DNA from: an uncultured Candidatus Saccharibacteria bacterium
Lineage (GTDB): Bacteria > Patescibacteriota > Saccharimonadia > Saccharimonadales > JAUPVS01
Direction: 5' to 3'
Length of the DNA: 64,000 nt
Assembly (NCBI GenBank): GCA_964627095.1
Contig: CAZVKH010000001.1
Span: 8,451-72,450 of the forward strand
Shown here: one piece after another, positions 1,201-62,472 of the stretch
Position numbering within the stretch: the stretch's first letter is position 1
How the letters are laid out: every line of letters starts with the position of its first letter
Program-made: the position numbers and the translations under genes
Notes under the pieces: model-generated
The model's database searches: none
Seen by the model: the letters and a program-made list of their open reading frames with translations, nothing else
What the model was told of the DNA's origin: nothing

Positions 1201-3627
1201 CTAACCTCGCTCGTCGAGCGTAGCTAACAATTCGGGGGCATCCAGCAACAGTACCTGCCCTGGGCTGGCCGTACCGGCTAGCAGCCGTTGCGCCACGACG
1301 TTTTCTACCGACCGCTGCACAACTCGGCGCAAGGGTCGGGCACCCAAACGGGGGTCATAACCTTTGTCTACAAGTAGCGCCTTGGCGGCATCGGTCAGGC
1401 TAACCGAAATTTTACGGCTTGCCAGAGTCTTATTAATACTGCCCATTAACAGGTCGACCACTTGCATCAGTTCTGGCTTAGTAAGTGGACGGAATAATAT
1501 AATCTCATCAAAACGGTTAATGAACTCAGGACGGAAGACGTTAGCATTGATAAGCTCGTTGACCAGCTCGTCTTCGAACTGCTCGAGCTGCTGGCCCTGG
1601 TCTATGCGCGCCCGAATATTCTCGGCGCCGGCGTTACTGGTGGCAATAATAATTGAGTCTCTAAAACTGATCGGTTTATTCTGTGAATCACGCAACATAC
1701 CTTCGTCGAGTAATTGCAGAAGCAGGTTCAGTACGTTGGGGTGGGCCTTTTCAATTTCATCAAATAAGACCACACTAAAGGGTTGTTTGGCAATTTGGGC
1801 ACATAGACTATAGGGGTCGGTGGCGCCGGTCGCCAGCAATCGGTTGGTGTCGTCGGGGTGCGAAAACTCATTAAGGTCAATTCGCACAATGCGGTCTTGA
1901 CCACCAAAATAGACATCGGCTAACGCCTTAGAAAGCTCGGTTTTTCCAACCCCGGTTGGGCCCAAGAACAAGAAAGTACCAATCGGCTTCTTTTCGTTAC
2001 CAACGCCAGTGCGGGCGCGTCTTAAAGCATCGCTCACCAGCTTAACGGCGCGCGTTTGGTTGATCATTCGTTGGTGAATCTTGGCCTCTAAGTTCAAAAG
2101 GGTATCTTTTTCTTCAAAGGTATCGGCTGTCTGGACCTTAATATCGAAGGATTTTTCGACACCCTGCTGAACTGAGCGGGCCGTAACAAAATGCTGCTGC
2201 TCCGGAAAGCCACAGGCTACATCAAGCAGCTTGAGTGCCTTACCAGGGAAGGCCTGCTCATGGATGTAGCGTTCGGCTAACTTGTAGGCCTCTTTAATGG
2301 CTTGATTCATTAGCACGACGCCATGTTTACCTTCGATAATTAATGTTTGATCTTCGATTACCTGAATAGTCTCTTCTTCGTTCAGCGGATTGACCACCAC
2401 TCGGTTTAGCGACTGGGTAAAGCCTGGGCTGGTTTGGGCAATCCTTAGCCATTCCTGATTGTCTAATGCCAATATAATCTTAAGGGCACCGCCTTCTAGA
2501 ACTGGCATCAGTACGCTGGACAAGTCCACAGAACCAGTACCTTCCCTTAGGAATAGCTGGGCTTCATCCAAGAACAAGACAACGTTCTTGGCGTGAATCG
2601 CTTCGTTAAAAATATGGATTAATAGTTCTTCAAGCTCACCCTTACCCTTGGCATTAGCGATCAGGTGTGATGCATTCAGCTCAATTACCTGCTGGTAACG
2701 CAAGTTCTGGGGAACATTTTTGGAATCTTGCAGAAGCCGCTGGGCCATGGTGTAGACCAGGGTTGTTTTTCCAACCCCAACATCACCCACCAAGACAGCG
2801 TTACGGCGACCAGGTTGAGCTAGTAAATGGATAATCTGATCAATTGTTTGGGCACGGCTATCGACTGGACGACGCAAGATGCCACCAGATTGCAAACCGT
2901 TGGTTATATTAAAGCCAACGTGGTTCAAAACTGGTGCCCAACCAAAACTAAGATCGCGGCCGACACCCCCGTAATGCCGCTTTTCGCGTTGGCGGTCGCG
3001 CATCATCCGCATATGATGACGCCAACTTACACCTCCCAGCACATCGTCACTATCAAGCTGTAGCTGAGCCAGGTGATGCTCATAGTGCGGTATCGACATT
3101 ACCAACCCAGCCACCAGAACAGCCGAATCGATCCGATCACTCGAAGTTGCCCGCGCAACATTAAGAGCAGTCTGCCAAACAACCGATTCTTGGGAACTCT
3201 CGGTCGATGACAGATTCTGCAAAAACTCCGGACCAATCGCAAAACGGGACCCGTAGAAATAGGCGCCCTGTTCATTGGCGACAAGTTTAGCCAGTGCCTG
3301 CGGTGACATATTGGGCTGCATCTTGGCCAATAGGCGCCGGCTAAGGACATCACTGACATCGCTGACAGTTTCGATTGACGATATCGGCGGCAAGTCCTTA
3401 AGCTCGCCGTAGTACCAAAAAAGCGGCATGGCTAGAGTGCCACTTAGGGCAAATAGTATATGGGCAATCATCTGCTGCTCAAAAAACACCCCCCAGAACC
3501 AAAAGAATAATGACAATACCACCGCCAACCAAGTGATTAGCCGCACAGATTGGTTATCTAAAATCTTTCCAAAGCGGGCTTTGGTGGCACGTGGACTTTG
3601 CAAATTGCAGTGAATCGGTGGGTTCAT
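1201..3627 (-). CDS. membrane-anchored double-AAA+ Clp/Hsp100-family ATPase (ClpA/B-like, no M-domain, no ClpP-docking loop evident)
   Basis: Two Walker A motifs (GDVGVGKTT and GPTGVGKTE), a DEAQLF Walker B, a second-region motif FDEIEKAHPNVLNLLLQLLDEG and TSNAG. Two N-terminal hydrophobic helices (ITWLAVVLSLFFWFWGVFF and ILFALSGTLAMPLFWYY). The spacing between the two Walker A motifs is about 275 aa, as in ClpA. Confidence 0.75.
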   Translation of the reverse strand: MNPPIHCNLQSPRATKARFGKILDNQSVRLITWLAVVLSLFFWFWGVFFEQQMIAHILFALSGTLAMPLFWYYGELKDLPPISSIETVSDVSDVLSRRLLAKMQPNMSPQALAKLVANEQGAYFYGSRFAIGPEFLQNLSSTESSQESVVWQTALNVARATSSDRIDSAVLVAGLVMSIPHYEHHLAQLQLDSDDVLGGVSWRHHMRMMRDRQREKRHYGGVGRDLSFGWAPVLNHVGFNITNGLQSGGILRRPVDSRAQTIDQIIHLLAQPGRRNAVLVGDVGVGKTTLVYTMAQRLLQDSKNVPQNLRYQQVIELNASHLIANAKGKGELEELLIHIFNEAIHAKNVVLFLDEAQLFLREGTGSVDLSSVLMPVLEGGALKIILALDNQEWLRIAQTSPGFTQSLNRVVVNPLNEEETIQVIEDQTLIIEGKHGVVLMNQAIKEAYKLAERYIHEQAFPGKALKLLDVACGFPEQQHFVTARSVQQGVEKSFDIKVQTADTFEEKDTLLNLEAKIHQRMINQTRAVKLVSDALRRARTGVGNEKKPIGTFLFLGPTGVGKTELSKALADVYFGGQDRIVRIDLNEFSHPDDTNRLLATGATDPYSLCAQIAKQPFSVVLFDEIEKAHPNVLNLLLQLLDEGMLRDSQNKPISFRDSIIIATSNAGAENIRARIDQGQQLEQFEDELVNELINANVFRPEFINRFDEIILFRPLTKPELMQVVDLLMGSINKTLASRKISVSLTDAAKALLVDKGYDPRLGARPLRRVVQRSVENVVAQRLLAGTASPGQVLLLDAPELLATLDERG

Positions 3628-8999: not shown

Positions 9000-9035
9000 A
9001 TCTTACAGCTACTCTGTTAGATATGCAAGCATGAG
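9000..9035 (-). promoter_or_regulatory. promoter: CTCATGCTTGCAT (extended -35) -17 nt- TAAGAT -7 nt- ATG
   Basis: Direct reading of the minus strand. It is one of three copies of the same 12-mer, each positioned identically relative to a start codon. Confidence 0.55.
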
Positions 9036-51863: not shown

Positions 51864-51899
51864 ATAGTCCTGCTTGGCTATTAATATTGCAAGCATGAG
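51864..51899 (-). promoter_or_regulatory. promoter: CTCATGCTTGCAA -17 nt- GACTAT -9 nt- ATG (HD-domain/crp operon)
   Basis: Direct reading. Third copy of the 12-mer. Confidence 0.5.
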
Positions 51900-52407
51900 C
51901 ATAATAGTTTTAGGCTATACTTATAGGGTGAATAAAAAACTTTTGTTGGCCATTGCCGTAATAATCGTCGTCATAGGTGCTGGTGTTATTTACTTGCTAA
52001 CCAGTAGTGAGCCAGAAAAAGCCATGGAAACAGTTACTGATCAGTCGACAACCACGTCTACTAGCCCGACCACGCCCCCTCCAGTTACTGACAATTCAAA
52101 ACCCGGCGCCTACATTGACTACACCAGCTCGGCAATTTCTCAGACTTCGGGCACAAAACTACTGTTCTTTCATGCGCCGTGGTGCCCCCAATGTCGCGAT
52201 CTCGAAGACAGCATTAAGCAGGATGGCGTGCCAGACAGTGTGACAATTATTAAGGTCGACTACGACAGCAACCAGGCCCTCCGCCAAAAGTATGGCGTAA
52301 CCCTACAGACGACCGTGGTTAAAATTGATGATAACGGTAACTTGATAGATAAGTTTGTCGCCTATCAAGAGCCTAGCCTGGCGGCTGTAAAGCAACGACT
52401 GTTGTAA
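51895..52407 (+). CDS. membrane-anchored thioredoxin-fold protein (WCPQC), ResA/TlpA-like; start uncertain (first ATG 51895; the table ORF begins at TTG 51874)
   Basis: N-terminal TM helix, and FFHAPWCPQC CxxC active site in a thioredoxin fold. Confidence 0.7.
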   Translation: MSIIVLGYTYRVNKKLLLAIAVIIVVIGAGVIYLLTSSEPEKAMETVTDQSTTTSTSPTTPPPVTDNSKPGAYIDYTSSAISQTSGTKLLFFHAPWCPQCRDLEDSIKQDGVPDSVTIIKVDYDSNQALRQKYGVTLQTTVVKIDDNGNLIDKFVAYQEPSLAAVKQRLL

Positions 52408-53868: not shown

Positions 53869-53944
53869 TTGGTAGCGGGGGCAGGACTCGAACCTGCGAC
53901 CTCGTGGTTATGAGCCACGCGAGCTGCCACTGCTCCACCCCGCG
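53869..53944 (-). tRNA. tRNA-Met (CAT), initiator-like (C1 x U72 unpaired)
   Basis: CGCGGGGUGGAGCAGUGGCAGCUCG...CUCAUAA...GGUUCGAGUCC..CCCCGCUACCA closely resembles bacterial tRNA-fMet. The 1-72 mismatch is retained. Confidence 0.8.
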
Positions 53945-54024: not shown

Positions 54025-54726
54025 ATGACCGATATGCTCGCTCCTTCAGCCGAAGCCGAAAAATTGCCAACAGATGACCCGACAACCATACTAGCACTTG
54101 AAGCACGCGACTTATTACTCGCCGCCAGCCAAGCCGAACCGGGCAGCCCGGATGAGGTAGCCGCCCTAGAGGAAGCCAATAGTCGCTTTAGCGAGCTGGT
54201 TAGCGAAACCCAGGAATTCCTTACCAAATTTGCTCTGAGCCGCCCCCACCCCAGGCATTTTGATGTGCAAGAAGTAGTCCAGGAAACCTACGCCCGAGCC
54301 TATAAGGGTTTACATAATTTTAGGGGTGACGCCAAGTTTTCTACGTGGCTATTTTACGTTTTGCGCAGCTGTACTGATAACTACTGGAGACGCGAGGCAC
54401 GTCACAACAATCAGCCCCTACCCGAAGAAGACGGTTCAGATCCATCCTTGGTTGGTAGTATTGCCGTGGTGTCATCATTAGATACTGGCGAGGTCGACAG
54501 CTTTTTGGACTACAGTAGCCTTTCGCCGGAACTAGAAGCAATGCTGGCCACTTTAAGTCCCAAGCAACAACAAGCTATTCGTATGCATGACGTAATGGGA
54601 CAAACCACTAAAGAATGTGCCGCGCAACTAGGTGTTAGTGAAATTAGTTTTAAGATGAACGTACACCGGGCTCGCCATAACCTACGCCGCGAATTCCCCG
54701 ATGCCAGAAACTGGTTAGAAGAATAA
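54025..54726 (+). CDS. ECF-type RNA polymerase sigma-70-family factor
   Basis: Region 2 (YARAYKGLHNFRGDAKFSTWLFYVLRS) and region 4 HTH (LSPKQQQAIRMHDVMGQTTKECAAQLGVSEISFK). Confidence 0.75.
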   Translation: MTDMLAPSAEAEKLPTDDPTTILALEARDLLLAASQAEPGSPDEVAALEEANSRFSELVSETQEFLTKFALSRPHPRHFDVQEVVQETYARAYKGLHNFRGDAKFSTWLFYVLRSCTDNYWRREARHNNQPLPEEDGSDPSLVGSIAVVSSLDTGEVDSFLDYSSLSPELEAMLATLSPKQQQAIRMHDVMGQTTKECAAQLGVSEISFKMNVHRARHNLRREFPDARNWLEE

Positions 54727-55034: not shown

Positions 55035-55111
55035 GGCGGCGTAGCTCAGTTGGTTAGAGCACAGGACTCATAAGCCTGGGGTCACAAGTTCAAATCTTGT
55101 CGCCGCTACCA
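55035..55111 (+). tRNA. tRNA-Met (CAT), elongator type
   Basis: GGCGGCGUAGCUCAGUUGGUUAGAGCACAGGACUCAUAAGCCUGGGGUCACAAGUUCAAAUCUUGUCGCCGCUACCA. The 1-72 pair is G-U, and the D and T arms match elongator tRNA-Met. Confidence 0.8.
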
Positions 55112-55167
55112 AACTTATTTGATATCGCTTGTGTTTAACCCCGTTTGGGGTAATAATAAACGGTATT

Positions 55168-55842
55168 ATGGATATGGATCTTAAACCCCCGACGCAGCCC
55201 AAATATCAGCTTAAGGAAACTCCGCCACCCGGCGCAACGCCACCTGAACCGCAGATGGACGACCCCTTTAAAGTTGATCCGCCACCACCCGAACTAACCG
55301 TACCTAAACCAAAGAAAAAACGCAGCGGCAAAGCTAAAAAGGCTTTGCTGGTTATTTTAGTATTGGCTCTGCTTGGTGCGGCCGGCTATGGTATTTACTA
55401 CTGGCAACACCAGCAAGTCGACAAACTAGCTAAAGAAAACCAGGCTCTAACCGCCCAACTAGCTGCCGCCAATAAAAAAGCTAGTGATGCCGAAGCCGAG
55501 AACGCCAAGCTTAGCGAAGCAGCCACCCCGCCAACGGCCGATACTTTGGTAATTACGGCTGCTACCGCCGATTGCCAGGCCGAGGTTGACCCAGCCACTA
55601 AGAAGGCTTTGGTATACACCCAAGGCACGCAAGGCACTGACAAAAAGAAAGTGCTGTATTCGACTGATAAGACCTTTGCCAAGGTTAGCGCTACCTGTGC
55701 TGCCACCGCTAACGCCACCGAGCCAGCCACGCTGTACTATGCTAAATTAGCCGGTACTACCTGGACGGTCATCTATGCTGACACCGCCGAGCCCGACGCC
55801 GACGTAACTGCTTTGTACGCCATCCCAACTGAATTCAAATAA
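55168..55842 (+). CDS. single-pass membrane protein with Pro-rich cytoplasmic N-terminus, coiled coil and Cys-containing extracellular domain
   Basis: TM helix ALLVILVLALLGAAGYGIYYW. Start set at ATG 55168 (the table ORF starts earlier, inside the tRNA trailer). Confidence 0.5.
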   Translation: MDMDLKPPTQPKYQLKETPPPGATPPEPQMDDPFKVDPPPPELTVPKPKKKRSGKAKKALLVILVLALLGAAGYGIYYWQHQQVDKLAKENQALTAQLAAANKKASDAEAENAKLSEAATPPTADTLVITAATADCQAEVDPATKKALVYTQGTQGTDKKKVLYSTDKTFAKVSATCAATANATEPATLYYAKLAGTTWTVIYADTAEPDADVTALYAIPTEFK

Positions 55843-56361: not shown

Positions 56362-56676
56362 TTAACGCTTATGCTTTTCAGTATGAGATTCGGCACGGGC
56401 TTGCATTTTTTGACCACGCTTCTTTACAAAGGCGTTTATAAAGGCACCAAAAATAGCAATTCCTAGCAGAATGTAGATGGTCGTAAATAACTTACCGGCA
56501 TCGGTTTTGGGCGTAATGTCGCCATACCCAACAGTGGTTAGGGTGACGATGCAAAAATAGTAGGCATCGACCCAGCCCCACTTTTCGACAAAGTGATAGA
56601 AAGCCATGCCAACCCCCAACACTGCGAAAGTAATGGTTAGTAGTAGCCTGTACATATAGCGGTCAAGTGGGTTCAT
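56362..56676 (-). CDS. minimal two-TM potassium-channel-family protein
   Basis: Selectivity filter TTVGYGD between two hydrophobic helices. 104 aa. Confidence 0.8.
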   Translation of the reverse strand: MNPLDRYMYRLLLTITFAVLGVGMAFYHFVEKWGWVDAYYFCIVTLTTVGYGDITPKTDAGKLFTTIYILLGIAIFGAFINAFVKKRGQKMQARAESHTEKHKR

Positions 56677-56691
56677 TGGTTTCTCCTGTAA

Positions 56692-57150
56692 TTATTTATC
56701 TGTCTGGCGATGTTGGAAAAAGTCCATCCAGGCTTGAAAGTTGCGCTGGAAAGTCGATACTACCACAGCTGGCTGAGCGGCCTTATTTTGCTCTTTGGAC
56801 ATATCAACAGTGTTGGCCAGCGCCACCCGCTTGGGCACCAAAACCAGTTTTTCATTAGGGGCGGCCTTGCCGAACTGGCGCCGGGCGGCTAGTTCCAGGA
56901 ATTGGTTGGTATTGTAGTACTGATTGGCTAGCTTTTGGTTATTATTCTGGAGATCCAGCACCTGGTTTTCTTGCTGTATAGCCGAGATTTGCTTTTGCAG
57001 GCCGTAGTTAGTCTGAATAGCCGAGATTGTACTCCAGCTTACTAACAGGGCAATGCCGGCAAAGATTAAAAGCCCCACCACGCGCACGTCTTGGAGTTGC
57101 TTAAAATAGGGATGGTTTTGGATATTTTTGATTTTACTGTTCATGAACAT
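56692..57150 (-). CDS. FtsB/DivIC-family septum formation initiator
   Basis: N-terminal TM, a coiled coil (ISAIQQENQVLDLQNNNQKLANQ), then FLELAARRQFGKAAPNEKLV. Confidence 0.6.
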   Translation of the reverse strand: MFMNSKIKNIQNHPYFKQLQDVRVVGLLIFAGIALLVSWSTISAIQTNYGLQKQISAIQQENQVLDLQNNNQKLANQYYNTNQFLELAARRQFGKAAPNEKLVLVPKRVALANTVDMSKEQNKAAQPAVVVSTFQRNFQAWMDFFQHRQTDK

Positions 57151-57211
57151 TTTTATTATACAATCCTTTGCCCAAAATCTGCTATACTCACTCTGTTAAT
57201 ACCACGACCAC

Positions 57212-57287
57212 GGGGGTGTAGCTCATCGGTCAGAGCAGGCGGCTCATAACCGCTTGGTAGATGGTTCAACTCCATCCACCCCCACCA
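57212..57287 (+). tRNA. tRNA-Ile2-like (CAT; probable lysidine substrate)
   Basis: GGGGGUGUAGCUCAUCGGUCAGAGCAGGCGGCUCAUAACCGCUUGGUAGAUGGUUCAACUCCAUCCACCCCCACCA. Its anticodon arm is near-identical to E. coli tRNA-Ile(LAU), and tilS is present in the window. Confidence 0.7.
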
Positions 57288-57358
57288 AATATCATGCTTG
57301 AGCTTACACCGTTTAACCTCTATACTAACTAGCAATAGGTAAAAGAGAGGGTTAACGC

Positions 57359-58408
57359 ATGGCTAGACTACCAGTTCCGGGCGGCGATACGGGTACATGG
57401 GGCACTGTACTCAATGACTTCTTAGGGGTAGCACATAATAGCGACGGCACGCTGAAGTCAATCACTTCGGCTACCGTGTCAGATTTTTCCGAAGCAGCCA
57501 TCGACGCTGCCGGTAGCGCCATGACAGCAGGTCCGGGCGTTTCTGTAACTGTCGACGATAACGCCAACACCATCACTGTTGGTAACGTCCGAACTACTAA
57601 TGTGCAAACTGCCAGCTACACACTGGCCTTAACCGATGCATTTAAGACCGTCCAGTTTGATGCTGCCGGTAATGTTTTCCCTACTCTTACCATCCCGACC
57701 AACGACGTTATACCATTTGCAATTGGAACGGTAGTTTATGTCACTCACTTAGCTACCGCCCGCTATACCACTGTAGCCGCTTCTGGAGGTGTTACACTGC
57801 AAGCTCCTAGCGGTCTTTCGGTTGGGCCAAAGCAAACCCTAACTCTGCAAAAAACCGCCAGCGATACCTGGATTGTTACCAGCGCCATCAGTGCCAGTGA
57901 CCCAGGCGTACTTCACGAAGTTGGCGCCTTGCCACCGGGTTACTCGCATCTTGGTACAGTTTCAACACTTAGCCTAAATGGTCAGATTTGGGTTCCTTTC
58001 GAAATCCAGTCGCCAATGGCGATGCCGGCAATAGTCATAAGGGTCACCACTGCCGTACCCGGATCACAGTTTAACCTGAGTATCTATCAGTGTGATACTT
58101 CTTGGACGGCTGCCTCATTTATTGGCACCATAATCAACCAGACGGCTGTTACCGGACTAAATACTATTACCCCACCGGCCACTACACTGCCACCAGGGCG
58201 TTATAGTATAAAGCTACGTTATTCTGACCTTTCGGCTATCGATATCCGAGCCATTAACTGTGCTCCGCCTTTCGTGGATCCCAGCATTGGTGCCACCGCT
58301 GGTGTCCAAAAACTAACCGGCTCATCTGGTAGTAACGACTGGACCGCTGCCACCTTAGCGACCGGAGGCTTTCAGCTCCCTTTCTTCTTCAGCCAACGGG
58401 CTCTGTAG
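57359..58408 (+). CDS. hypothetical protein resembling actinophage minor-tail/tail-fibre N-terminal domains
   Basis: MARLPVPGGDTGTWGTVLNDFL...AIDAAGSAMTAGPGVSVTVDDNANTITVG matches a pattern I recall from phage tail-fibre proteins. Beta-rich Thr/Ser/Val composition and no signal peptide. Recollection, not a database hit. Confidence 0.4.
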   Translation: MARLPVPGGDTGTWGTVLNDFLGVAHNSDGTLKSITSATVSDFSEAAIDAAGSAMTAGPGVSVTVDDNANTITVGNVRTTNVQTASYTLALTDAFKTVQFDAAGNVFPTLTIPTNDVIPFAIGTVVYVTHLATARYTTVAASGGVTLQAPSGLSVGPKQTLTLQKTASDTWIVTSAISASDPGVLHEVGALPPGYSHLGTVSTLSLNGQIWVPFEIQSPMAMPAIVIRVTTAVPGSQFNLSIYQCDTSWTAASFIGTIINQTAVTGLNTITPPATTLPPGRYSIKLRYSDLSAIDIRAINCAPPFVDPSIGATAGVQKLTGSSGSNDWTAATLATGGFQLPFFFSQRAL

Positions 58409-58443
58409 CACCTCCGGCGGACACACCGCCAGATGTTCCATCA

Positions 58444-59388
58444 ATGCAGCTCGTTGGCTCGAATCCATTCGCGCTTACGCAACCTTCGGGTGCGCGTGGT
58501 CTTCATACGCTTATGCCGTTTGGCAGTAAGCTTTACGCCGGTTTTGGTGACTGGATTTCGAATACCGGTCCGGTTGAAATCACTTCTTGGAATGGCTCAT
58601 CTTGGACTAGCGAATTTACTGCCAAAACGGAAAGTATAGTTCGCTACCGAGTTTTGAACGGTAAGCTGTTTGTACCTTATATCGACCCACGCACCAGTTA
58701 TCACAACGACTTTGCCGTTCTGGAATCTGGTGGCTGGACCGAATATCGAACTGGATCAGGGCCAAACGAAGCCACCTTACACACCTTTGATATGACATAC
58801 TTTGGCGGTCAATACTGGGGGGCCGGTGCCGCCACCGATGACAATAAGGCGTCGGTTTACCGCAGCGCCGACTATACATCCGGTGGATCCTGGACTCGTT
58901 CCAACTTTGGCACACCGAACGGCGAAGATCGTATCTATACTATCTGGCAAGCCGATGGCAATTTGTACTGCCGCTTCTCGACCGGGCCTGGTGTCGTTTT
59001 CTTATGGAATGGCTCGGCGTGGGTAGACTCCGGCCTATCCAACACCAACGCACCCGGCTGGAACACCGAAACTTTTGGTACCAAAACTGCCTACACCAAT
59101 GCCTTTAACGGCGGTAGTGCCGACAAAGTCCGCACCTTCGACAGCACTAATGGCGTCCAAACCTGGGATAACGCCGGCAACACCTATGCGCTGTGTGTCA
59201 GTGGTAGTTACGTATACGCCCTGGCCGACGCCGGTACGGCCTTTAAGCAAGTTCTCCGCTCCACCGACCTCGTAACTTGGACACCAATCGCCCTGCCACC
59301 GTCTGACTGCGAAAGCATAGCTATTTGGAATAATACCGTCTACGTTGGTACCACTAGCGGCGCGCTATACAACTATGCGCTTAGTTAG
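58444..59388 (+). CDS. hypothetical beta-propeller-like protein (Trp/Gly-rich blades)
   Basis: Recurrent beta-hairpin segments (KLYAGFGDW, KLFVPYID, QYWGAGAA, NLYCRFST, YVYALADA, TVYVGTTSG). No signal peptide. Confidence 0.4.
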   Translation: MQLVGSNPFALTQPSGARGLHTLMPFGSKLYAGFGDWISNTGPVEITSWNGSSWTSEFTAKTESIVRYRVLNGKLFVPYIDPRTSYHNDFAVLESGGWTEYRTGSGPNEATLHTFDMTYFGGQYWGAGAATDDNKASVYRSADYTSGGSWTRSNFGTPNGEDRIYTIWQADGNLYCRFSTGPGVVFLWNGSAWVDSGLSNTNAPGWNTETFGTKTAYTNAFNGGSADKVRTFDSTNGVQTWDNAGNTYALCVSGSYVYALADAGTAFKQVLRSTDLVTWTPIALPPSDCESIAIWNNTVYVGTTSGALYNYALS

Positions 59389-59950
59389 CTCGGGCTTTTT
59401 GCAAGACCTTGGCCCACCACACCAAGTTGTCCATCAGCTTCTCAGGGCTAGAGCCTCGCAAATTTCCTTCGCTAAAGTTGCCTTCTTCGTCAAAAGCACC
59501 CCAAACGTCAATCACCTTGACTGAAGTACCTAGTAGCGGCACCATCCCAATTTGGGCAACCACCGGCACAAGATGCTCTAGTGTAGCCGAGCCACCTAGG
59601 GCACCGTAGCCAACAAAGGCCACCGGCTTACGGGCCCACTCGTTATACAAGTAATCTATAGCGTTCTTTAGGCTGGCTGGATAGCCATGGTTATACTCGG
59701 GTGTAACAAAAACATAGCCATCGAATGAATCAATAAGTTTTGACCACTTCTTGGTATGCTCTCTTTGATATTGTTGCATCGAAGCCAAATTTGATTCATC
59801 TAGAAATGGCAGATTAACATCAGCCAGGTCGATTAGCGTAAACTTAACATCCGGCGTGTCAGAAACTTGATCAACAAACCAGTCGGCAATTTTACGACCG
59901 ACACGGGAAGGGCGGGTAGAGCCAACGATAACGGCAATTTTTAAAGTCAT
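59381..59950 (-). CDS. NADPH-dependent FMN reductase (flavodoxin-like fold)
   Basis: MTLKIAVIVGSTRPSRVGRKIADWF N-terminal motif of the NADPH-dependent FMN reductase family. Confidence 0.8.
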   Translation of the reverse strand: MTLKIAVIVGSTRPSRVGRKIADWFVDQVSDTPDVKFTLIDLADVNLPFLDESNLASMQQYQREHTKKWSKLIDSFDGYVFVTPEYNHGYPASLKNAIDYLYNEWARKPVAFVGYGALGGSATLEHLVPVVAQIGMVPLLGTSVKVIDVWGAFDEEGNFSEGNLRGSSPEKLMDNLVWWAKVLQKARAN

Positions 59951-59992
59951 GGGTGTGTAACCTTTCGTTAATTTTCTATATCGCTATAAATT

Positions 59993-60011
59993 GTATAGTA
60001 ACTTACTATAC
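59993..60011. promoter_or_regulatory. 19-bp perfect palindrome GTATAGTAA-c-TTACTATAC in the divergent FMN-reductase/hxlR intergenic region (candidate HxlR operator)
   Basis: Read directly. It is 18 nt upstream of the hxlR start. Confidence 0.55.
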
Positions 60012-60028
60012 TTTGTAAAGCCTGAAGT

Positions 60029-60379
60029 GTGCGTTATACTGCTAGCATGAATCCTGCCATCGAAAAACATCCTGGCTGTATCGAAAATACTTTAACCATC
60101 CTCGGCGACAAATGGACTGCCTTAATTGTGCGTGACCTCTCTTCTGCCAAAGCCCGCTTTGGTGACCTCGAGACCTCTTTGGCTGGTATCAGCCCGCGTA
60201 CCCTGAGCCAACGCCTCGACAAACTAGAAAAAGAAGGCATTGTAATTAGACGCCTCTACTGCGAGCGACCACCACGTTACACCTACGAACTAACTAGTAA
60301 GGGGCTGGAACTTCAAGAAATTCTAGTCAAGATGTCCGAGTGGGGTGACCGCCATAACTGCCAAAAGGGTATCGCGTAG
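60029..60379 (+). CDS. HxlR/DUF24-family winged-helix transcriptional regulator
   Basis: LTILGDKWTALIVRDL...GISPRTLSQRLDKLEKEGIV matches the HxlR family. Confidence 0.8.
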   Translation: MRYTASMNPAIEKHPGCIENTLTILGDKWTALIVRDLSSAKARFGDLETSLAGISPRTLSQRLDKLEKEGIVIRRLYCERPPRYTYELTSKGLELQEILVKMSEWGDRHNCQKGIA

Positions 60380-61300: not shown

Positions 61301-62098
61301 TTATTGGTACTTACGTAGTTCTTGCAACACATTACTTTGCGATGTCCGCAACAGACTGTCGCGGCGCTGGGCATACTCTAAGGTATGCTCAGTGTATCTC
61401 AACCAGTGTCGTGTTCGCTGATTGCCGTCACCATGCAAACCAAATAAAACGACCGTTAAGGCTCTTTTGGCCATAACGTGTTCATCAACCGACCAGCCCA
61501 GCCGTTTACCAGCTACTCCAATCATATTGCCAATAGTGTCTTTGGTTTGCACTACTTTAGGGTATAGTTTATCGGCGCGATAATGGGCCCGACCGCCACT
61601 TCTAGCCTCTTTGGCGACAACTCGAACACAATCGACTTCGGCCTGTATGGCCGCTCGGCGATCTTCTAGTTTAACGACACGACCTTCAAGCCCTTCCCTA
61701 GCCTTACGCTTCTTAACGGCTTCAACAAGATGTGGGCGATTCTGATACTCACTTTCGGCGCGAGCCCTAATTCGCTTGGCCAGCATGACTGGACTACTAA
61801 CAATCGCCTTGTAGTCATCGGCCGGGAAAACCAATCCGCGCCAAGCGTTATCGACATCATCATCATGGGCATTGCCGGTATACAAAGCTAAGCGAATGTC
61901 TACCGGATCAATTATTGCCAAGTCCTCGACAGCCGTTGCCCCCATGGCTTGGCGACTAGTTTCGGTATCGCTTAAAACATTCAACAGATGACTGAACGTA
62001 ACTGGCTGTTCCCAGTCAATTCCTAACTCATGCCTTGGCTGGGTGCCTTCGAATGGAAGTGGTCCCTGCCCCACCCCGGGATGTGTTGCTTGTGCCAT
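61301..62098 (-). CDS. hypothetical protein
   Basis: ORF only. A C-terminal LFGLHGDGNQRTRHW segment is not assignable. Confidence 0.4.
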   Translation of the reverse strand: MAQATHPGVGQGPLPFEGTQPRHELGIDWEQPVTFSHLLNVLSDTETSRQAMGATAVEDLAIIDPVDIRLALYTGNAHDDDVDNAWRGLVFPADDYKAIVSSPVMLAKRIRARAESEYQNRPHLVEAVKKRKAREGLEGRVVKLEDRRAAIQAEVDCVRVVAKEARSGGRAHYRADKLYPKVVQTKDTIGNMIGVAGKRLGWSVDEHVMAKRALTVVLFGLHGDGNQRTRHWLRYTEHTLEYAQRRDSLLRTSQSNVLQELRKYQ

Positions 62099-62103
62099 CG
62101 CTA

Positions 62104-62472
62104 TTAACCAAGCAGCCTTCGGGCGGCTGCTACACCAGCTCTGCCAATATCAATTTCGTCTTTACCGGGACGCATATAAGCATCATGCCCGATTGGTTTA
62201 GGTGGTCCTTTTACCATGTCTTCAGGTCCAAGTTGATCGGATGTTTTTGCAGGTTTGGGTTCTGCCGTATCAACACGAGCAACTGGAGCCTGCTCAGCAG
62301 CCAAATCTTCGTCACGACTAGCGACTATACCAGCCGCTCGGGCAGCTTGTTCGCGATATGGGTCTTTAAACTCTGGCTGTTCGGTAGGTGGCGTTGTATC
62401 TGCAGACATTCCAGAGGGCGCTTCGGACGGAGCTTGAGGAGTGGGATCAAACAATGACGGCTGATCGTTCAT
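62104..62472 (-). CDS. hypothetical Pro/Ala-rich protein
   Basis: ORF only. Low complexity. Confidence 0.3.
   Translation of the reverse strand: MNDQPSLFDPTPQAPSEAPSGMSADTTPPTEQPEFKDPYREQAARAAGIVASRDEDLAAEQAPVARVDTAEPKPAKTSDQLGPEDMVKGPPKPIGHDAYMRPGKDEIDIGRAGVAAARRLLG

Follow-up and report, generated by a model that had tools for sequence, protein, structure and literature searches.

How does a bacterial chromosome come to carry, directly behind a tRNA gene, a gene of the phage tail-fibre type together with a β-propeller gene, and what might such a pair do for its bearer? The question is raised by a stretch of 64,000 nucleotides (the window) from contig CAZVKH010000001.1 of an uncultured Candidatus Saccharibacteria bacterium (GenBank assembly GCA_964627095.1, positions 8,451 to 72,450 of the forward strand), in which two co-oriented open reading frames, ORF A and ORF B, follow a tRNA gene of the Ile2 type. 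A preliminary description of this DNA had proposed that the two genes are either a domesticated phage receptor-binding module or the remnant of a prophage. The analysis presented here suggests that the pair is probably a functional, selectively maintained and phage-derived receptor-binding cassette, carried as cargo in a hot spot of recombination and integration on the 3' side of the tRNA-Ile2 gene and not as a prophage. The genes and modules that bear on this reading are listed below.

57359 to 58408, plus strand: ORF A, 349 residues, leaderless and modular, a phage-type tail-fibre-like protein (open reading frame call)
57359 to 57460, plus strand: N-motif, residues 1-34 of ORF A, a putative docking module; an extreme N-terminus shared by about 65 proteins
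57596 to 57883, plus strand: central β domain of ORF A, residues of about 80-175, homologous to the C-terminal tip of Gordonia-phage minor tail proteins (PHROG 8780, fold match)
57887 to 58405, plus strand: C-terminal domain of ORF A, residues 177-349, a putative remote relative of collagen-like and tail-fibre tips (HMMER)
58444 to 59388, plus strand: ORF B, 314 residues, leaderless, conserved as the partner of ORF A and predicted to fold as a β-propeller with about seven blades (open reading frame call)

A modular fibre-type protein and its propeller partner

Sequence comparison indicates that ORF A is a mosaic of three modules of the phage tail-fibre type. The first of these, the N-motif, starts in ORF A as MARLPVPGGDTGTWGTVLNDFL and has the consensus MARLPxPGxDxGxWGxxLNDFLxVxHNSDGTLK. 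It occupies the extreme N-terminus of about 65 database proteins, the rest of whose sequences are unrelated and which carry BppL_N, DUF5907, Collar, Gp10_C, β-helix, pectate-lyase-like, phage-tail-repeat (PTR) and GDSL-lipase modules, the kinds of domain of which phage fibres and tailspikes are built. The motif itself is matched by no Pfam model. The preliminary description had taken this N-terminus to be characteristic of actinobacteriophage tail proteins, and its phage-type nature is borne out: the same motif is present in six cultured Streptomyces phage records representing five phages (BRock, LuckySocke, Alone3, GiJojo and pSt2308; 60-66% identity, E about 1e-8) and in 24 IMG/VR contigs, the guanine-plus-cytosine (GC) contents of which range from 34 to 70%. 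The gene begins 12-22 nt past the tape-measure gene in five of these 24 contigs and is tightly coupled to another upstream gene in most of the others. The capsid of one N-motif virus is only about 27% identical to those of Caulobacter and other cultured phages.

Two side observations concern the motif itself; here and below, L-numbers denote comparison loci, among them L001 (GCA_030916945.1, the sister genome) and L101 (GCA_009612795.1). The annotated coding sequence of BRock gp186 (L091, 8791-9738) overlaps tRNA-Lys(ttt), while its N-motif starts at locus position 9001, and the true start of the gene probably lies 210 nt 3' of the annotated one; the gene sits within the tRNA array of the phage and not in its tail module. 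Between the window and L001, synonymous divergence (dS) in codons 1-35 of ORF A (57359-57463) is 0.22, as against 0.8-2.0 for the rest of the gene, a difference that may reflect noise (these being 35 codons only), constraint at the nucleotide level or gene conversion among N-motif paralogues.

The central domain carries the most direct link to phage tails. Residues of about 60-175 match positions 638-753 of the 755 positions of PHROG 8780, 'minor tail protein' (E = 2.5e-12), and this is the only part of ORF A covered by direct homology to tail-fibre or minor-tail families. A tblastn search with ORF A recovered 208 phage records at 30-43% identity, of which 199 belong to Gordonia phages, and the matched proteins are mostly annotated 'minor tail protein'. 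Within the genome of Gordonia phage Tardus, the matching stretch is the C-terminal tip of gp41, which is the final minor tail protein ahead of the lysis genes (lysin A) and the largest one. The comparison of structures proposed earlier leads to the same families, since a fold search of BFVD with ORF A returned 223 viral matches at E <= 1e-3, mostly tail-fibre or minor-tail proteins, and the central-domain model superposes on Gordonia phage minor tail proteins at 1.4-1.9 Å across about 100 residues.

The C-terminal domain is connected to phage fibres by a longer route. An exhaustive HMMER search of 1.84 billion representatives found one close homolog (P0003) and 16 remote relatives (E = 6e-6 to 9e-4), mostly matched at or near the C-termini of collagen-repeat or fibre-like proteins and having in common with ORF A the motifs VEVTT, GIYxADxxWQP and LxPGRYL. 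Nine of the ten remote relatives that were scanned match phrog_25864 or phrog_21562, 'tail protein', over the homologous region, and the tenth matches tail-fibre PHROGs; the link to tail fibres is a transitive one, ORF A itself not reaching phrog_25864 or phrog_21562. The AlphaFold2 model of this domain is moderate (predicted local distance difference test, pLDDT, of 60-70 for residues 210-290), and direct sequence searches of the PDB gave nothing meaningful for either ORF A or ORF B.

ORF B had been described as a multi-blade β-propeller with a common receptor-binding fold, and it is the first part of that statement that stands. Modelled by AlphaFold with an alignment of its 96-protein family, it reaches a pLDDT of 91.5 and a predicted template-modelling score of 0.92 with 27 β-strands; the best Foldseek matches in the PDB are seven-bladed propellers, namely the WD40 domain of β-TrCP and virginiamycin B lyase (template-modelling, TM, scores of 0.61-0.65 at about 10% identity). 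The model predicts, then, a β-propeller of about seven blades. No Pfam family (WD40, Kelch, PQQ, BNR, NHL and others) reaches threshold, a few relatives showing sub-threshold PQQ_2 matches. A single-sequence search finds three homologs and a profile search 96 at about 30% identity, from Acidimicrobiales, Solirubrobacterales, Phycisphaerales and one Saccharimonadales; a metagenome scan with ORF B recovered only the WBZX01 assembly. The family is mostly secreted: a signal peptide or a membrane anchor is present in the relatives examined, and many of them also contain RTX, Big_7, dockerin, fn3, cadherin-like or CBM96 modules; the two genomic contexts examined, both from genomes of about 70% GC, are cellular neighbourhoods of polysaccharide or peptide modification. 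ORF B and its 94%-identical homolog begin directly at the propeller, with no earlier start codon and without the export signal of the family.

Kinship of ORF B with phage receptor-binding proteins was considered and rejected. Its PHROG matches are noise only (E >= 0.05) and include no tail-fibre assembly or adhesin family, tblastn gave no match in 50,697 phage genomes and none in IMG/VR, and the viral fold matches are generic propellers. A receptor-binding role for ORF B would follow from its fold class, the extracellular nature of its family and its linkage to ORF A.

The insertion slot behind tRNA-Ile2

The setting of the pair is defined by the following features.

56692 to 57150, minus strand: DivIC-like septum-formation gene, the conserved left anchor (Pfam DivIC)
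57212 to 57287, plus strand: tRNA with anticodon CAT, Ile2-like (lysidine-type) (ARAGORN; Rfam RF00005, 67.2 bits)
57272 to 57287, plus strand: 16-nt tRNA 3' tail CCATCCACCCCCACCA, att-core-like, with further copies in relatives
57298 to 57326, plus strand: sigma-70-type promoter-like site, TTGAGC, 17-nt spacer, TATACT (consensus scan, 9 of 12 positions matching; a consensus match only)
57345 to 57351, plus strand: Shine-Dalgarno-like GAGAGGG, 7 nt 5' of the ORF A start codon (read from the sequence)
59381 to 59950, minus strand: gene for an NADPH-dependent FMN reductase, the right boundary (Pfam FMN_red, E = 3e-39)

From DivIC to the ABC transporter genes the order is DivIC, tRNA, ORF A, ORF B, FMN_red, HxlR, Dus and two genes of no assigned function. 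Coordinates and hydropathy agree with the earlier account of two co-oriented genes of 349 and 314 codons directly after the tRNA and without signal peptides: neither protein has a hydrophobic N-terminal segment, the 19-residue Kyte-Doolittle maxima being 1.35 (ORF A) and 1.11 (ORF B), both internal. The two genes are separated by a spacer of 35 nt on the same strand, in which a scan found no promoter-like or terminator-like site and which allows no earlier in-frame start for ORF B. ORF B and the convergent FMN-reductase gene share an 8-nt 3' overlap (59381-59388), and there is therefore no intergenic room for a terminator or an attR; no terminator-like site was found in 56600-60100. The promoter-like site and the GAGAGGG leader are kept in L001 and L101 despite differing upstream context.

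Three tRNA genes with the anticodon CAT (53870-53944, minus strand; 55035-55111, plus strand; 57212-57287, plus strand) are clustered within 3.4 kb, as they are in L001. The tRNA at 57212 pairs G1 with C72, and its nearest E. coli counterpart is ileX (Ile2). Set against E. coli reference tRNAs, the one at 53870 resembles the initiator and the one at 55035 the elongator tRNA-Met. The Ile2-like label given earlier to the tRNA at 57212 accordingly holds by similarity and by elimination.

Comparison between genomes indicates that the pair has been maintained for a long time. Relative to L001, the ratio of nonsynonymous to synonymous divergence (dN/dS) of ORF A is 0.036, at a dS of 1.27, and that of ORF B is 0.024, at a dS of 1.15; these values are approximate, since dS is near saturation. 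Most flanking genes have dN/dS of 0.01-0.07 and dS of 0.4-3.6. Because its dS is similar to that of the flanking genes, the pair was present in the common ancestor of the window genome and L001, and the strong purifying selection (dN/dS about 0.03) argues that it is functional and not decaying. In every lineage found (L001, L101, L099 and L100) both frames are intact at 59-95% identity, and ORF B directly follows the ORF A homolog after 32-35 nt in every one that holds either gene. Of the two alternatives offered by the preliminary description, the domesticated module therefore fits better than the decaying remnant.

The pair is confined to one small clade. The closest relatives of the window, anchored on Dus, are Saccharimonadales at 79-80% identity, which bears out the suggestion that the source organism is a Saccharibacterium, and L001 is collinear with the window at 83-89% nucleotide identity. 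In 80 loci of other, species-representative Saccharimonadales, likewise anchored on Dus and sharing the flanks, both ORF A and ORF B are absent from this position, so that the synteny comparison asked for earlier came out in favour of an accessory element. Neither of the two outcomes named at the outset as contrary to the proposal was found: ORF A does resemble phage tail proteins, and the pair is not a set of conserved core genes. The arrangement of tRNA and DivIC is kept in at least 28 Saccharimonadales species, among which the gap between Dus and the tRNA 3' end varies from 63 to 6057 nt. Of the 86 ORFs called mechanically in these gaps 57 are singletons, and the sole wide recurrence is a pair of about 305 and 250 residues beside Dus; the nearest species lacking the pair (L012) has FMNred, a 205-residue singleton ORF, the tRNA and DivIC. 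Ten tRNA-proximal cargo genes from other species include no integrase or phage gene and encode, among others, a GH5 cellulase, a zincin peptidase, EamA, PAS and 6PGD proteins.

Traces of insertion are seen in the relatives. An extra 800 bp or so lies exactly at the tRNA 3' end of L001 (8039-8838) and encodes a 211-residue membrane-anchored protein; in having an N-terminal transmembrane segment ahead of a coiled coil, this protein resembles in style the window gene at 55129-55842. A second copy of the 16-nt tRNA tail (14 of 16 positions) is found 93 nt 3' of the tRNA in L001-L003 (at 8116-8131 in L001), and a degenerate copy, GGTTCAAGGCCTTCATCTTATCGCCACCA, stands directly 5' of the ORF A leader in L001, so that the insert is bracketed by the tRNA tail, the 14/16 copy and the degenerate copy before ORF A. 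L101 carries a perfect 16/16 copy (3164-3179) before the ORF A leader without a tRNA body, a match for which the chance expectation is about 1e-5 per 20-kb locus; upstream of it are a P-type ATPase gene and two genes of no assigned function. In L014 (15180-15359) and L038 (12654-12841), two copies identical to the tail of their own tRNA-Ile2 stand 164-172 nt apart and look like small att-type scars. In L001 and in WBZX01, further islands separate the tRNA from the pair, placed exactly between the two, and the right flank is unchanged, that of the WBZX01 genome being FMNred-HxlR-Dus as in the window. These tail copies and serial insertions argue that the tRNA-Ile2 3' end is an active insertion site at which new islands push the pair away, and its flank is a hypervariable slot, or accessory-gene hot spot, in the order.

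The cassette is cargo in this slot and not part of a prophage. The statement that integrase, capsid and terminase genes are missing is upheld for the whole window. In a comparison with 382 kb of phage and viral sequence carrying related fibres, only ORF A matches as a phage gene, the lone other match being a weak one to the thioredoxin region (51868-52404), and the Pfam annotations of the syntenic locus L001 are of cellular genes, with no other phage gene. An intact island at the tRNA was considered and set aside, there being no flanking att pair in the window. Moreover, the pair is not strictly tied to the tRNA: in the divergent lineage L099/L100 (ORF A 67%, ORF B 59-65% identical) it follows TatC and a 61-residue gene, with no tRNA, and because of this location it can be said to move or persist as a unit. 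The 61-residue gene (in the regions L099 2-532 and L100 3-176) has an SRKDFL motif and a hydrophobic stretch and ends 4 nt before ORF A. The idea of the tRNA flank as an integration site is consequently retained for the slot, which is hypervariable and scarred in relatives, and not for the window, which has neither att repeat nor integrase.

Some further features of the window were noted. A 19-nt inverted repeat (95% complementary) joins 57998-58016 in ORF A to 58544-58562 in ORF B; its complementarity is lost in L001, L101, L099 and L100, and it was dismissed as probably due to chance. The sigma-70-family gene at 54025-54726 (plus strand), between the initiator and elongator tRNA-Met genes, is about 33% identical to its counterpart in L001 (4813-5478), at which level its dN/dS estimate is not meaningful, and has no nucleotide alignment to L001, while its neighbours are all 82-97% identical; the pattern suggests that, in the interval between the two tRNA genes, one sigma-factor allele has been replaced by another. 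Adjoining genes of 265 and 122 codons at 61301-62472 (minus strand) have dN/dS of 0.12 and 0.17 at 82-84% amino-acid identity to L001 and evolve several-fold faster than their neighbours; the 265-residue protein is without a Pfam match.

Possible functions of the cassette

The pair in the window belongs to a wider set. Six other N-motif genes on long contigs all lie amid housekeeping genes (G6PD, 6PGD, PGK, TIM, SOD, UvrD, ribosomal protein L33 and sigma factors); two of the contigs are named Saccharimonadales at NCBI and others are syntenic with those. No phage gene was found within about 10 kb of any of the six. In five of the six a partner gene of about 230 codons follows at 1-4 nt, and four of these partners are mutually homologous Laminin_G_3 (concanavalin-like lectin) proteins. 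In the Dus-flanking region that corresponds to the slot of the window, another Saccharimonadales species, L047 (8647-12931, minus strand), carries a 140-residue N-motif gene, a 328-residue protein without a Pfam match and a 953-residue protein with three K319L-like PKD domains, all three leaderless. The repeat module of the 953-residue protein is homologous to genes of about 232 codons that directly follow N-motif genes on the viral contigs L105 and L127, and this homology suggests that the arrangement of a fibre with a lectin-like partner is itself a phage one. All cassette proteins are leaderless, and the adjoining β-helix surface proteins carry N-terminal anchors.

In the reading preferred here, ORF A would assemble as a fibre, probably trimeric by analogy with its phage relatives. 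The N-motif would dock this fibre onto a conserved platform, and the distal domains of ORF A would act with ORF B to bind another cell, through a polysaccharide on its surface or a component of its wall. As to the platform, it could be a structure of the cell envelope, in which case the cassette would be an epibiont adhesin, or else a tail tip belonging to some phage or phage-like particle whose genes lie elsewhere in the genome; neither is strongly favoured.

Several observations weigh against this reading. The receptor-binding role is a putative one, drawn from homology and architecture only. The AlphaFold2 model of ORF A has a mean pLDDT of 57.7, the central domain (70-91) being its sole confident part. 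The similarity of ORF B to known propellers is generic (TM about 0.6 at about 10% identity), as are its viral fold matches, and its relatives are cellular proteins with signal peptides or anchors and not phage proteins. No signal peptide, anchor or sortase-type motif was found in either protein, and we know of no route by which a monoderm cell would display leaderless proteins on its surface. The att-type scars in relatives belong to later insertions beside the pair and not to its arrival. In the window the direct repeat of the tRNA 3' end looked for near or after 59388 was not found: allowing up to 3 mismatches, no copy of the 16-nt tail lies near the cassette, repeats of 12 nt or longer are lacking, and the 3' half of the tRNA recurs only as chance 10-11-mers. 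No integrase of the tyrosine or serine recombinase type adjoins the tRNA or lies among the DivIC-to-ABC transporter genes. The suggested comparison of base composition proved uninformative, with GC of 0.517 (ORF A) and 0.528 (ORF B) against 0.485 for the window, and third-position GC (GC3) of 0.47 and 0.56 within the 0.32-0.59 of other genes. Lastly, the dN/dS values are approximate, and the chromosomal N-motif loci were surveyed over about 10 kb on each side.

The two candidate platforms correspond to two accounts that are rated about equally, each put forward only tentatively. The cassette might be a spare receptor-binding set for a phage or phage-like particle encoded elsewhere, the N-motif docking on its tail tip so that the target range is widened or switched. 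This would explain why every cassette protein is leaderless, like virion proteins, and why a highly conserved N-motif is combined with variable C-terminal modules, as is classic for the swapping of receptor-binding proteins; on viral contigs the N-motif gene comes after the tape measure, and fibre and partner pairs occur there as well. However, neither the 64-kb window nor the surroundings (about 10 kb) of the seven chromosomal cassettes contain a phage structural gene, cassettes of the LamG type appear syntenic across genomes (L102, L104), and the long-term purifying selection on ORF A and ORF B at host-like divergence makes the cassettes look vertically maintained; to our knowledge, no such particle has been described in Saccharibacteria. 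Alternatively, the fibre might be displayed on the Saccharibacterium as a domesticated surface adhesin that recognises an actinobacterial host. The source organism is a member of the Saccharimonadales, the fibre modules are common to phages of Actinobacteria (Gordonia and Streptomyces), and the purifying selection, the non-phage contexts, the lectin-like or propeller folds of the partners and the neighbouring genes, which often encode surface β-helix proteins, speak for this account. Saccharibacteria require multiple adhesins (PMC10633639), and a phage of an actinobacterial host adsorbs to and enters TM7x (PMC13578794), an adsorption from which it follows that phages of this host physically reach Saccharibacteria. 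Against the adhesin stand the lack of any signal peptide, anchor, sortase-type motif or identified anchoring partner, the presence of the N-motif in phages of 34% to 70% GC, which makes it not specific to actinophages, and the lack, in the literature searched, of experimental or published support for such fibres in Saccharibacteria. An extension of the adhesin idea, which we regard as unlikely, would make the N-motif a common docking or export handle that mounts interchangeable, leaderless glycan-binding heads on the epibiont, setting its host range and being swapped via hot spots; fibre tips with LamG, PKD or propeller partners would then be the heads.

Other explanations give the genes a lesser or a different part. 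That they are an inert remnant, tail genes decaying after the remainder of a tRNA-integrated prophage was deleted, would agree with the tRNA 3' flank, the phage ancestry of ORF A and the absence of all other phage genes; this is the account to which we give the least credence, because dN/dS is 0.036 and 0.024 at dS above 1, at least four lineages, down to 59-67% identity, keep both frames intact, the promoter-like site and the ribosome-binding site are conserved, and ORF B is not a phage-type gene. Scarcely more probable is an anti-phage decoy, in which the N-motif protein of the host would compete with the N-motif fibres of an infecting phage for the tail tip and yield defective or mis-targeted virions. 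The motif does occur both in chromosomal genes and in the tail-tip genes of real phages, the absence of a leader makes the proteins probably cytoplasmic, and the location is a variable, island-like slot; however, ORF A and ORF B match no PADLOC defence family at E <= 0.1, no defence genes were seen in the neighbourhoods, and elaborate conserved distal binding domains with a partner protein are not obviously needed for a decoy. It is also improbable that ORF B is functionally unrelated to ORF A, for instance a cytoplasmic enzyme or scaffold that merely adjoins it. Its family is cellular and found without fibre genes in other phyla, and its generic propeller similarity includes enzymes such as virginiamycin B lyase; what speaks for a joint function is that ORF B follows ORF A at 32-35 nt in all lineages found, including at a different locus, that the spacer between them has no promoter-like or terminator-like site and that the arrangement of fibre and partner recurs across the family.

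The locus offers a concrete, testable class of candidates for host recognition by Saccharibacteria and other ultrasmall epibionts. Actinobacteria are the known hosts of cultivated Saccharibacteria, and type IV pili and a few adhesins have been implicated in the recognition of hosts. Each candidate is a phage-type fibre cassette in which a conserved N-terminal handle is joined to binding ends that can be swapped; these cassettes are kept under selection in chromosomes without phage genes nearby and have part of their sequence in common with phages of Actinobacteria. Were they adhesins, an epibiont would be reusing the receptor-binding parts of its host's phages; were they to serve a phage-like particle, they would point to an undescribed particle system in bacteria of the Candidate Phyla Radiation (CPR). 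If the pair is only a conserved orphan tail-fibre pair, it would be a case of ordinary phage-gene exaptation. Either way, the 34-residue N-motif is useful as a search handle, and the tRNA-Ile2 flank is a defined accessory-gene hot spot in the order. What is new here is the N-motif, lacking a Pfam model, as a common handle of fibre proteins, the recurrence of leaderless cassettes of fibre and partner in Saccharimonadales chromosomes, and the propeller-partner variant at a defined tRNA-Ile2 hot spot; in the literature searched, tail-fibre-like proteins of Saccharibacteria or Patescibacteria are nowhere described.

Comparison with known systems

Among known proteins, the nearest to ORF A are the actinobacteriophage minor tail proteins (PHROG 8780, Tardus gp41), to the C-terminal tip of which residues of about 60-175 are homologous and which have the same modular build with a variable distal end. 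In contrast to them, ORF A is half their size or less, has an extra C-terminal domain beyond the homologous tip, and lies in the chromosome of a member of the Saccharimonadales, outside any tail operon and without a neighbouring tape measure, Dit/Tal or lysin. ORF A thus has the homology and the fold of phage minor-tail and fibre proteins and lacks their tail-module context. Orphan or exapted tail-fibre genes are well known.

The tail-tip proteins of the IMG/VR contigs and the collagen-like proteins of the BRock type have the same N-terminus of 33-34 residues as ORF A (52-79% identity), and in many cases a tightly coupled downstream gene. Beyond the motif, however, their sequences are unrelated to ORF A, and the viral genes follow the tape measure or another large tail gene amid capsid and tail genes, whereas ORF A stands alone. 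As to the partner, the gp37/gp38 adhesin of T4 and the tail fibres of the lambda and Mu type with their Tfa chaperone are phage two-gene systems of fibre and accessory protein, and like them the pair consists of a fibre gene followed immediately by a smaller, presumably co-transcribed gene, kept as a unit. ORF B differs from gp38 and Tfa in having no PHROG match to them and in being a 314-residue propeller, not a small chaperone or an adhesin of the gp38 type.

Genomic islands linked to tRNA genes resemble the locus in their clade-restricted cargo at a tRNA 3' end and, in the relatives, in tail repeats and serial insertions. Unlike them, the window has no integrase, flanking att pair or compositional anomaly, and the cargo is of two genes only.

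A further comparison is with the phage-type attachment proteins diversified by diversity-generating retroelements (DGRs) in CPR genomes (Roux et al. 2021, PMC8144416). In contrast to those proteins, ORF A and ORF B gave no sign of a C-type-lectin variable domain, and 56600-60100 contains no template and variable-repeat pair of a DGR, the longest direct repeat being 33 nt at 73% identity, with no search aimed at a reverse transcriptase. What the two have in common is the broader theme of episymbionts with small genomes that carry phage-type binding proteins, perhaps for attachment of one cell to another.

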